Below, piece after piece: positions 61,577 to 63,838 of a stretch of DNA of 64,000 bases. Source of the DNA: Escherichia phage NHEP11. The stretch lies in sequence record PQ511149.1; one strand, given 5' to 3'. Made by a program: the position numbers and the translations under genes. The stretch's first letter is position 1. Every line of letters begins with the position of its first letter. The notes below the pieces were generated by a model. It was not told the origin of the DNA, did no database searches, and saw only the letters and a list, made by a program, of their open reading frames with translations.

Positions 61577-62236
61577 TTAACCTCGATTCATAAATGCATT
61601 AAATATTTGGTCATCAACAGAAATTTCTAATTCGACTTCAATTGCTTCAGTCTTTTCTTCAGGTGGTAATTCGTATCCACACACTACAATTTTTTCATCG
61701 ATATCAAAATATACAGAAGCAATACGATTAATGTTATTTTCGGTTAAGTCTAAATCAACATCAACATCTTTTTGACCTACACTTAAAGGATAACTAATAC
61801 GGGTTATTTTATTATCTTTAACAAAGAGTCCACCAACATACTCTGTGCTACGTTTGAAGTTTACACGTTTCCGAATTGAAAGATATGACACGTCTTTACC
61901 GTGAGCTCGGCTCATAGGACATAATGAATAGCTAGAATAAGAGATGTCAAATCCTACACCTTCAATATGAGCCAACGTGTCATGAGTAAACCAATTATAA
62001 TCATATGCCAAATCCATTATATTGTAATATGTGAAAGGCACAGGATTAACATCATATGTTGTACCTTTAAAATCTGCCCAGGCAACGATTTCGTTATCTT
62101 TAACAATTACAAAAATTACACCAATATGGTATCCGTTATTATTTTCATTCGGCGTTATATTATAACATTGTGCATTAGGAAATTTACCATATTTAAATGG
62201 TGCGTTTTTGTGCATGTAATAAATCATATTATTCAC
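61577..62236 (-). CDS. hypothetical protein (61.2 position)
   Basis: 219-aa ORF. Confidence 0.45.
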   Translation of the reverse strand: MNNMIYYMHKNAPFKYGKFPNAQCYNITPNENNNGYHIGVIFVIVKDNEIVAWADFKGTTYDVNPVPFTYYNIMDLAYDYNWFTHDTLAHIEGVGFDISYSSYSLCPMSRAHGKDVSYLSIRKRVNFKRSTEYVGGLFVKDNKITRISYPLSVGQKDVDVDLDLTENNINRIASVYFDIDEKIVVCGYELPPEEKTEAIEVELEISVDDQIFNAFMNRG

Positions 62237-62522
62237 CTGTGATTTCGGTTACGATATCTTTGTTATCGAAATTAGGGTCACAATACAAAACATAGTTGTA
62301 CTGCATGATACCGCCAGATTTAAGTTGTTGAACAACTTTATTAACCATATTAGGACGGTCTCGTTTAGTGATGTTCATGATATCAGAGAAGATTTGTTGT
62401 TCAACATCTTCTTGATTTGCAGTCATTGACCACTCACAGAGATCTTTATCATAACCTGCCGTAACTGGAGCTGGTGCACATGATACTGCAAGTAAGATTG
62501 CTGCCAATGATAACTTTTTCAT
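62229..62522 (-). CDS. sp: periplasmic protein, spackle (Sp)-like superinfection exclusion candidate
   Basis: 97 aa with cleavable signal peptide (MKKLSLAAILLAVSCAPAPVTA); T4 Sp length and 61-41 position. Confidence 0.5.
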   Translation of the reverse strand: MKKLSLAAILLAVSCAPAPVTAGYDKDLCEWSMTANQEDVEQQIFSDIMNITKRDRPNMVNKVVQQLKSGGIMQYNYVLYCDPNFDNKDIVTEITGE

Positions 62523-62551
62523 TTTAACTCCTTAGTTGATTTGATAGGACT

Positions 62552-62581
62552 ACTATACTATAGTCCATCTATAATGTAAAC
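62552..62581 (-). promoter_or_regulatory. early-type promoter upstream of sp-like gene
   Basis: GTTTAC, 18 bp, TATAGT. Confidence 0.4.
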
Positions 62582-62585
62582 AAGT

Positions 62586-62834
62586 TTATTCTTTTTCGCG
62601 AATAATAATTACTTGTTGAGGCTGCTGAGCAGATTTCTTTTCGGCAACGATAGACCAAATTAAAGTTCCAATCCAACCAACCATCGTCCAGTTAAAGAGT
62701 AAAGATACAAAGAAGATTGCTGTTGTGCTTTTTGTGCCACGAATAAGTGCGATTACCCAAGGCAACATGTAAATGATGATTGAACCAATACCTGCGATTA
62801 AAACCGCTACTGAACTAGCTACGAATAATTCCAT
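62586..62834 (-). CDS. small two-TM membrane protein
   Basis: 82 aa; hydrophobic helices around YMLPWVIALIRG and NWTMVGWIGTLIW. Confidence 0.45.
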   Translation of the reverse strand: MELFVASSVAVLIAGIGSIIIYMLPWVIALIRGTKSTTAIFFVSLLFNWTMVGWIGTLIWSIVAEKKSAQQPQQVIIIREKE

Positions 62835-62895
62835 GTTAATTTCCTCTTGATTTGTTATGTTTATAATATCTTGTTTTAACTTTGGCGTAAACCAA

Positions 62896-63264
62896 TTAAT
62901 TAAATTTGTTTAAACGTTCAATACACTGGACGTAGTTATTTGTGATTTGTTTCCTGGTAGGCTCTTTACCAGTTGTTTCAACATAGCGAATGAATGCGAT
63001 TTCAGTAGCCTGTAGACAATGTTCTTTCACGCGTTGTTCTTTTGACGATGCTACAGTATCAGAGTCACGATAACGTTGAGCATGGGCATCAGCTTGAATC
63101 ATTCGATTACCTACAGTAACCGGGTCTTCCACTTCAACTTTAGGTTGGTCATACTGTTTAACATTTGGATTGTAAATCAGTTGGCCAACGTTATTAGGGA
63201 TAAAGCCATGGGCACCACATCCGGTTAATCCAAATACCATTGCTAAAGCGATTAATTTTTTCAT
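62896..63264 (-). CDS. lipoprotein
   Basis: 122 aa; signal peptide with lipobox LTGC; early promoter 63293-63322. Confidence 0.5.
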   Translation of the reverse strand: MKKLIALAMVFGLTGCGAHGFIPNNVGQLIYNPNVKQYDQPKVEVEDPVTVGNRMIQADAHAQRYRDSDTVASSKEQRVKEHCLQATEIAFIRYVETTGKEPTRKQITNNYVQCIERLNKFN

Positions 63265-63292
63265 TTTAATTTCCTCTGTAGTTGATAGAAAG

Positions 63293-63322
63293 ATAGTAAC
63301 ACAGTATGTGGTGCTTGTAAAC
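63293..63322 (-). promoter_or_regulatory. T4 early-type promoter upstream of lipoprotein gene
   Basis: GTTTAC, 17-18 bp, TACTAT. Confidence 0.5.
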
Positions 63323-63335
63323 AGTTATTTTAAAA

Positions 63336-63524
63336 TTATCGAAAATCTGCTTCGAAAACTTTCTCGTCATTAACAAATGCTTTAACTAATGCGTTGTTCA
63401 CTTCAGCAAGTTGTACCGCAACCCACTCGATTTCTTCGCGATCACCTGATAACATGATATCTTTAGTGAACATCTCACCGCTTTTAAACCAACCGATAAA
63501 AGTAACTTTAGTTAATTTGCTCAT
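63336..63524 (-). CDS. dmd: Dmd-like antitoxin (inhibitor of RnlA/LsoA-type toxins)
   Basis: 62 aa from ATG 63524 with GAGGAA SD; motif V.F.GWFK...MFTK...VKAF; T4 61.5 position. Confidence 0.5.
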   Translation of the reverse strand: MSKLTKVTFIGWFKSGEMFTKDIMLSGDREEIEWVAVQLAEVNNALVKAFVNDEKVFEADFR

Positions 63525-63838
63525 ATTTCCTCGCAAAATGCCCATTCAGCGTGATAAACTGTAGCACCTTTAGTATTATTCATTTGAACTACGTCTACCG
63601 GAGAAATTACTCGATAGAGACGTGGTTCACCTCCATAAGAGCGTGCTGCTCGTCCTGCATAAATCTTTGCTAAACCGATATCTTCAGTAAAGAATACACG
63701 ATCCAAGTTTTTCTTACGTCCAGTTTCAGACAGAACTCCTGTTTCTTCAGGAGGACAAAGCATGTTTTCGATGTTAGCTGAACTACTTGAACCGTGATAA
63801 AAAATCTTAAATTCTGCTTTACAATCGATGGTTTTCAT
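63521..63838 (-). CDS. hypothetical protein
   Basis: 105-aa ORF, ATGA overlap with dmd-like gene; stem-loop promoter upstream. Confidence 0.4.
   Translation of the reverse strand: MKTIDCKAEFKIFYHGSSSSANIENMLCPPEETGVLSETGRKKNLDRVFFTEDIGLAKIYAGRAARSYGGEPRLYRVISPVDVVQMNNTKGATVYHAEWAFCEEI

Follow-up and report, generated by a model that had tools for sequence, protein, structure and literature searches.

In the 64,000-nt stretch of Escherichia phage NHEP11 analysed here (PQ511149.1, hereafter the window), four consecutive open reading frames (ORFs) occupy positions 62229–63545 of the minus strand. A first-pass annotation had assigned them to a spackle-like periplasmic protein with a signal peptide, a protein with two transmembrane segments, a lipoprotein and a small Dmd-like protein, and had proposed that they form a compact host-takeover or exclusion module. 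The four genes are present as described, in a region where all genes lie on the minus strand and plus-strand ORFs are short. By homology they correspond to sp, imm, imm.1 and dmd of phage T4, and exclusion and anti-toxin genes (for Sp, Imm and Dmd) indeed stand side by side. We consider that 62229–63545 is part of an early accessory-gene island of a Mosigvirus, an RB69/HX01-like T-even coliphage, located between primase gene 61 and helicase gene 41. Taken jointly with the explanation of the whole given below, this reading has in our view a probability of about 90%.

The assignment to this phage group agrees with nucleotide comparisons of positions 59800–64000 (4.2 kb). This part shares 98.5% identity with Escherichia phage NHEP10 and matched 154 phage records at 95–99% identity, 150 of which cover at least 80% of it. 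Phage HX01, classified as Mosigvirus, is among the 154. At the protein level, Pfam scores of Sp, Imm, Imm.1 and Dmd were all far above gathering cut-offs, and the four matches are therefore not due to chance. NCBIfam gave zero matches for the five proteins searched, and no Rfam RNA family was detected on either strand of 61000–64000.

Four genes and their T4 counterparts

The sp gene (spackle, gene 61.3; 62229–62522, minus strand) would encode a 97-aa precursor of a periplasmic inhibitor of the gp5 tail-spike lysozyme. The protein matched Pfam T4_Spackle (PF25676) over residues 1–96 of 96 (1.2e-42, 144.8 bits, cut-off 27), PHROG 'spackle periplasmic' (6.6e-42) and the crystallised Spackle chains of PDB 6x6o/7cn6 (E 1e-39). 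With T4 Sp, BLASTP gave 66% identity over all 97 residues (E 1.5e-49). Sequence similarity thus identifies it as a Spackle orthologue. Residues 1–23 form a hydrophobic signal sequence and, as the alignment to T4 Sp is gap-free, cleavage is predicted at VTA↓G23 (VTA↓GYD), leaving a mature protein of 75 aa. Mature T4 Sp, also 75 aa, binds and inhibits the lysozyme domain of gp5 through contact residues that have been named (PMC7677548). All of these, S32, M33, T34, A35, Q37 and N76, are identical in window Sp, and C29 and C81, which would form a disulfide, are kept. T4 Spackle (gp61.3; PDB 6x6o, 6xc0, 7cn6, 7cn7) is thus alike in length, signal peptide, Cys29–Cys81 and gp5 contacts, and likewise lies directly upstream of adfA/61.2. 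It differs at about one third of residues, differences which presumably tune window Sp to the Mosigvirus gp5 lysozyme. Given the 66% identity and the conserved contacts, the T4 mechanism can probably be carried over: Sp would be exported to the periplasm early and bind the gp5 lysozyme domain of a later-arriving T-even phage, blocking digestion of the cell wall.

Similarly, the two-transmembrane protein (62586–62834, minus strand, 82 aa) is, by its sequence, the inner-membrane superinfection-immunity protein Imm. It matched Pfam Imm_superinfect (PF14373; 1.8e-15, 56.9 bits, cut-off 27.9), PHROG 'immunity to superinfection' (1.2e-30) and, over its full length, T4 Imm (BLASTP, 82/83 residues, 64% identity, E 1e-36). 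Hydrophobic stretches cover residues 1–64. For T4 Imm, binding to the tape-measure protein gp29 has been shown, and exclusion is weakened by the mutations R33A and W50A (bioRxiv 10.64898/2026.03.06.709160, a 2026 preprint). R33 and W50 were aligned with R32 and W49 of window Imm, both conserved. The 64% identity and these two residues suggest the same mechanism, in which Imm in the inner membrane would bind gp29 of the incoming phage and block genome translocation. Two other readings of the gene were rejected. Its product is not the counterpart of T4 gp61.4, despite the same position: similarity is nil, and the true 61.4/TifA homologue is found elsewhere in HX01. A duplication of imm in Mosigviruses was also discarded, imm having a single place per record in 1040 of 1040 records and being absent between genes 43 and 42 in HX01.

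The lipoprotein (62896–63264, minus strand, 122-aa precursor) is, to judge from its sequence, a homologue of T4 Imm.1. It matched Pfam DUF5481 (PF17578; 5.2e-09, 36.9 bits, cut-off 27) and phrog_1754 (3e-28), and BLASTP gave 32% identity with T4 Imm.1 over 125 columns (E 1.4e-18). Its signal, a short hydrophobic stretch, ends in the lipobox L-T-G-C16, and Gly at +2 indicates that the predicted lipoprotein is probably anchored in the outer membrane. T4 Imm.1 likewise bears a lipobox and has in common with window Imm.1 the motifs YNPNVK.Y and AQ.YR.SD and a C-terminal Cys pair. The T4-type protein differs by an extra N-terminal Cys pair, absent from the window protein. Compared with the T4–window identities of Imm (64%) and Sp (66%), the value of only 32% shows a far higher rate of evolution in Imm.1 than in the adjacent genes. 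The two-transmembrane protein and the lipoprotein of the first-pass annotation are therefore not new: they are Imm and Imm.1.

Finally, the small protein is identified by its sequence as Dmd (gene 61.5), a 62-aa cytoplasmic antitoxin against RnlA/LsoA RNase toxins. It matched Pfam Dmd (PF17587; 2.7e-19, 69.7 bits, cut-off 27), PHROG Dmd (3.5e-32) and T4 Dmd (BLASTP, 53% identity over 60 residues, E 6e-21). PDB 5i8j is identical at 60/62 positions, and a match was also obtained to the T4 Dmd chain 5hy3_B, whose deposited name is 'Antitoxin Dmd'. Alignment to T4 Sp and Dmd, which the first-pass annotation had suggested as a check, thus revealed clear similarity in both cases. Its coordinates hold for the ORFs themselves and need one adjustment: on the minus strand the dmd frame reaches up to 63545, yet translation almost certainly begins with the ATG at 63524 (gene at 63336–63524), because this codon is preceded by a GAGG Shine-Dalgarno sequence and overlaps (ATGA) the stop codon of an upstream 105-aa gene, relatives are annotated with the equivalent start, and the crystallised 5i8j protein begins MSKLTK. 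Once RnlB has decayed, RnlA degrades phage mRNA unless T4 Dmd inhibits it directly (PMC9391042, PMC5308261). By homology, window Dmd would bind in the cytoplasm the RnlA/LsoA RNase toxins unleashed as the host antitoxins decay.

Early promoters and the surroundings of the four genes

The motif GTTTAC-N16-18-TANNNT was found at 23 sites in the window against 3.0 expected, 22 of the 23 being on the minus strand. Four sites, all on this strand, lie exactly in the gaps before the 105-aa gene and dmd (63865–63893, GTTTACT-N16-TATTAT), imm.1 (63293–63322, GTTTACA-N17-TACTAT, with a TG extension), imm (62863–62892, GTTTACG-N17-TATTAT) and sp (62552–62581, GTTTACA-N17-TATAGT, in the 63-nt imm–sp gap). 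The last is also the candidate promoter of adfA, whose ATG is found one base after the sp stop codon. Promoter-stem-loop (PeSL) cassettes with the T4/PST-type consensus TTTACW-N17-TAYWAT have been tied to gene shuffling in hyperplastic regions of T4-like phages (PMC4122927; PMC2839356), and the four window promoters fit this consensus. Moreover, a 19-nt inverted repeat (63838–63856 / 63874–63892, 89% complementary) lies on both sides of the promoter of the 105-aa gene and dmd and reaches partly into it, an arrangement that resembles a PeSL. A generic scan for sigma-70 promoters and terminators was unenriched over shuffled sequences (19 promoters vs 17.3; 3 terminators vs 2.6). As each unit has its own predicted T4-type early promoter, these genes appear as an accessory-gene island of independently promoted units and not as a single operon. 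Just two pairs, 105-aa gene–dmd and sp–adfA, look co-translated or co-transcribed. Other GTTTAC promoter sites lie elsewhere in the window (e.g. 242–271, 6781–6809, 41405–41434), and the site list provides a ready map of its early transcription units.

In order of transcription, the minus strand carries a 124-aa gene, the 105-aa gene, dmd, imm.1, imm, sp, adfA/61.2, a 65-aa gene, 61.1 and gene 61. The first-pass annotation had placed the cluster between gene 61 and gene 41. The island does lie between them, and it abuts neither. Between primase gene 61 (59829–60851) and sp are gene 61.1 (60891–61385), the adjoining 65-aa gene (phrog_3249, 61378–61575) and adfA (gene 61.2, anti-DarT factor A, 61577–62227), the latter directly downstream of sp in the same island; all are on the minus strand. 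Upstream of dmd come the 105-aa gene and then the 124-aa gene, cut by the window end, and gene 41 is outside the window, its start falling ~350 nt past position 64000 by comparison with NHEP10. Gene 61.1 has ~155–164 aa in the window against 54 aa in T4, with homology only in the C-terminal ~40 residues (75% identity), and the 65-aa gene is without T4 counterpart in the region. On the plus strand, convergent with gene 61, a 65-aa hydrophobic ORF (59635–59832), hypothetical protein in NHEP10 and HX01, could encode a small membrane protein.

The 105-aa gene (phrog_2110, 63521–63838, minus strand) appears from the overlapping codons to be translationally coupled to dmd in the same transcription unit. 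No Pfam match was obtained for its product, whose structural model is confident (predicted local distance difference test, pLDDT, 87.5). The best fold matches of the model were ADP-ribosyltransferases (Foldseek: Arr, probability 1.0, TM-score 0.60–0.63), and the model thus assigns the protein an ADP-ribosyltransferase (ART) fold; some records already label it putative ADP-ribosyltransferase. In an alignment of 30 family members, H15-G16, F49, T51, Y60, R63 and E103 were invariant, and Y14 and F50 nearly so. The family was found in 609 phage records, with hosts Escherichia, Klebsiella, Acinetobacter and Aeromonas at at least 64% identity and nine weaker records below 60%, including a Vibrio phage at 34%. 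None of the matches listed was from Tequatrovirus.

The surroundings of dmd were compared with those in T4, where dmd, tifA and adfA (61.2) have been proposed as an anti-toxin–antitoxin (anti-TA) island (Srikant, Guegler and Laub 2022, PMC9391042). T4 TifA, the product of 61.4, inhibits ToxN and is co-transcribed with dmd, and a shorter TifA next to dmd was noted in RB69 (PMC9391042). Like its T4 counterpart, dmd of the window is on the downstream side of gene 41, follows an early promoter and is close to sp and adfA. In contrast to T4, tifA is deleted, imm.1–imm is inserted, and the 105-aa ART-fold gene, absent from T4, precedes dmd and is coupled to it. HX01 carries directly after dmd a 70-aa ORF whose product is 57% identical to T4 TifA/gp61.4 (E 1e-27). 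Aligned with HX01 (NC_018855, L001:6526-6738 in our locus numbering), the window lacks ~206 bp, tifA included, through a clean natural deletion with its junction at 63334–63335 (minus strand) directly after the dmd stop codon. Accordingly, tblastn with T4 61.4 gave zero matches in the whole 64-kb window. A Mosigvirus-type TifA was found in ~69 phage records and a Mosigvirus-type Imm.1 in 154 (~45%). Thus tifA is polymorphic, and the window phage is tifA-minus.

AdfA of the window was recognised by Pfam AdfA (6e-119) and is 65% identical to T4 gp61.2. Its residue 164, numbered from MHKNAPF, is Arg, which is another difference from the T4 island. R164 is the RB69 allele, which does not bind or neutralise DarT1, His164 being the active form (PMC11257639).

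The imm.1–imm cassette and the Imm.1 lipoprotein

In the window and in 16/16 other loci examined, which represent six sequence lineages, imm.1 directly precedes imm in the same orientation. Outside Mosigviruses the gap between the two genes is 7–14 nt (11 nt in T4), whereas it is 61 nt and contains its own promoter in the window. The T4 order is 43–imm.1–imm–42, and T2 and four metagenomic lineages are arranged likewise. In HX01, the interval 43–42 holds other genes, imm and imm.1 both being absent from it, and in Mosigviruses imm.1–imm is found between dmd and sp, where T4 has gene 61.4 (tifA). Both imm and imm.1 are single-copy in every phage record. The two genes therefore constitute a conserved cassette, kept in the same order and orientation as in T4, that was relocated in Mosigviruses from an ancestral site between 43 and 42. 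The first-pass annotation had counted the lipoprotein as an extra gene of the cluster; it is instead the T4 imm.1 homologue, part of this cassette.

Searches for relatives of Imm.1 returned a small family: six clusters in an exhaustive HMMER profile search of 1.84 billion representative proteins, 3 and 6 proteins in word-indexed searches, and 7 loci in a scan of IMG/VR. As none of these searches revealed bacterial or distant relatives, a function cannot be transferred to Imm.1. In the literature searched, DUF5481 is unmentioned and phage Imm.1 appears only as a T4-group marker.

An AlphaFold2 (AF2) model of Imm.1, built on a 7-sequence alignment, had a mean pLDDT of 59.9. Residues 1–58, modelled with low confidence, contain the invariant YNP.VK.Y motif, and residues 75–120 form a confident helical hairpin. 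We picture Imm.1 as a lipid-anchored protein with a long flexible linker and this small hairpin. The pair C83 and C114 lies in this hairpin, which is probably stapled by a disulfide. It was invariant among the intact members aligned; the frameshifted P0006 lacks this C-terminal pair, and in P0129 a C-terminal Cys pair is visible in the unaligned sequence. No fold relative was detected by Foldseek against PDB (best E only 3.5), and searching the PDB sequences with a profile produced no meaningful match.

In two metagenomic lineages, P0005 (L013:5001-5372) and P0002 (L015:718-1086), the lipobox Cys is lost and the signal peptide is of the ordinary kind (AHA↓E and AHA↓S). Some phages can therefore do without the lipid anchor, and it is the periplasmic location, rather than the anchor, that is conserved.

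Island or module, and the role of Imm.1

The first-pass annotation viewed the cluster as a compact module, which would imply that selection has acted on the four genes as one dedicated, co-regulated host-takeover or exclusion unit. In line with this, the genes adjoin one another on one strand, early promoters precede them all, and in Mosigviruses imm and sp are adjacent and flanked by the anti-toxin genes dmd and adfA. However, each unit has its own promoter, and the products belong to different compartments and have unrelated targets. The block is also not conserved, as T4 has tifA where Mosigviruses have imm.1–imm, and gene content varies even within the group, tifA being present in only ~69 of the ~154 Mosigvirus-type records. 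Such regions are moreover known hyperplastic regions shuffled via promoter-stem-loop cassettes (PMC2839356, PMC4122927). A single module is thus improbable. According to the island explanation, which we prefer, the four genes would act separately, in three cell compartments and within minutes of infection, and their clustering would arise because hyperplastic regions are where T-even phages accumulate small genes for interaction with the host, with an early promoter cassette before each. In Mosigviruses, the imm.1–imm cassette would have come to the dmd/sp position instead of its ancestral 43–42 site, and the window phage would additionally have lost tifA. One point weighs against this explanation, namely that all functions are transferred from T4 homologues through sequence similarity.

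For Imm.1, we tentatively propose a periplasmic accessory to Imm-type exclusion, whose target would be either Imm itself or the tail tip as it penetrates, because imm.1 is always directly upstream of imm and was moved together with it. Several observations weigh against such a role. T4 Imm alone, expressed from a plasmid, confers exclusion (bioRxiv 10.64898/2026.03.06.709160), so that Imm.1 is not required for Imm activity, and imm occurs in 1040 phage records but imm.1 in only 656, many phages thus using Imm without Imm.1. The joint relocation is a single event and T4-like synteny is generally conserved, which makes the linkage weaker than 16/16 suggests. In addition, the Mosigvirus gap is 61 nt with a promoter against an operon-tight 11 nt in T4, and the AF2 model is poor for half of the protein, with no fold match. 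It is because Imm suffices alone, imm outnumbers imm.1 and the relocation counts only once that we keep the accessory role below even odds. A different envelope role, unrelated to superinfection exclusion, is a serious possibility as well: Imm.1 could act on host envelope enzymes, on lysis timing or inhibition, or against envelope-associated host or prophage defence, and lie beside imm by inherited synteny. The sufficiency of Imm in T4 is in line with this, as are the fast evolution of Imm.1, typical of proteins in an arms race whose target, in the host or a competitor, is variable, and the extreme narrowness of its family. The single rearrangement that moved imm nevertheless also moved imm.1 with the order kept, and a gap of only 7–14 nt outside Mosigviruses implies co-transcription. 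Very unlikely, in our view, is a receptor-masking outer-membrane lipoprotein of T5 Llp or phi80/N15 Cor type, which would block the phage's own receptor independently of Imm. Like Llp and Cor, Imm.1 is a small early phage lipoprotein acting in the cell envelope. It has a non-Asp residue at +2 of the lipobox (predicted outer membrane), conserved C83/C114 and an early promoter, and T5 Llp works by blocking the receptor (PMC9586334). But sequence or family similarity of Imm.1 to Llp or Cor was undetectable, DUF5481 being its only Pfam match, the anchor-less P0002 and P0005 suggest an apparently functional soluble periplasmic form, and the linkage between imm.1 and imm is tight. The receptors are FadL/OmpF for T2 and OmpC/LPS (lipopolysaccharide) for T4. 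Despite this difference, Imm.1 is 98% identical between these two phages, which argues against a receptor mask.

A more specific version of the accessory role, which we consider doubtful, would make Imm.1 a third, hitherto unrecognised envelope exclusion factor of T-even phages: a periplasmic, usually lipid-anchored and fast-evolving partner of Imm that recognises the rival tail tip (gp5/gp27/gp29) or positions Imm at the entry site. If this is true, Imm.1 could help set which T-even relatives are excluded, and the move of the cassette next to sp in Mosigviruses would have made a contiguous three-gene exclusion block. RB69 has been reported to exclude T4 (PMC5885020).

As a discovery these results carry little weight. 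The four genes are members of described families, their arrangement is ordinary for this phage group, and many GenBank records contain it in exactly this form, mostly with annotation. The module idea of the first-pass annotation was preceded by the anti-TA island proposed for T4 (PMC9391042), and T4 homologues have been tested (Sp, PMC7677548; Imm, bioRxiv 10.64898/2026.03.06.709160; Dmd, PMC9391042 and PMC5308261). Their value lies in annotation and phenotype prediction. The two-transmembrane protein is now named Imm and the lipoprotein Imm.1, and the RB69 group, stated in 2018 to lack Imm.1, proves to have a divergent homologue at another site. We also observed RefSeq product names without Pfam or PHROG support, 'iduronate sulfatase' for Imm.1 (T4 NC_000866 and HX01 NC_018855) and 'DNA polymerase' for the 70-aa TifA homologue of HX01; 'molybdenum ABC transporter' for a 59-aa ORF in the region looks spurious.

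Concerning phenotype, the window phage is predicted to be sensitive to toxIN, being tifA-minus, and to DarTG1, carrying the R164 allele of AdfA, and to be resistant to RnlAB/LsoAB, having Dmd.

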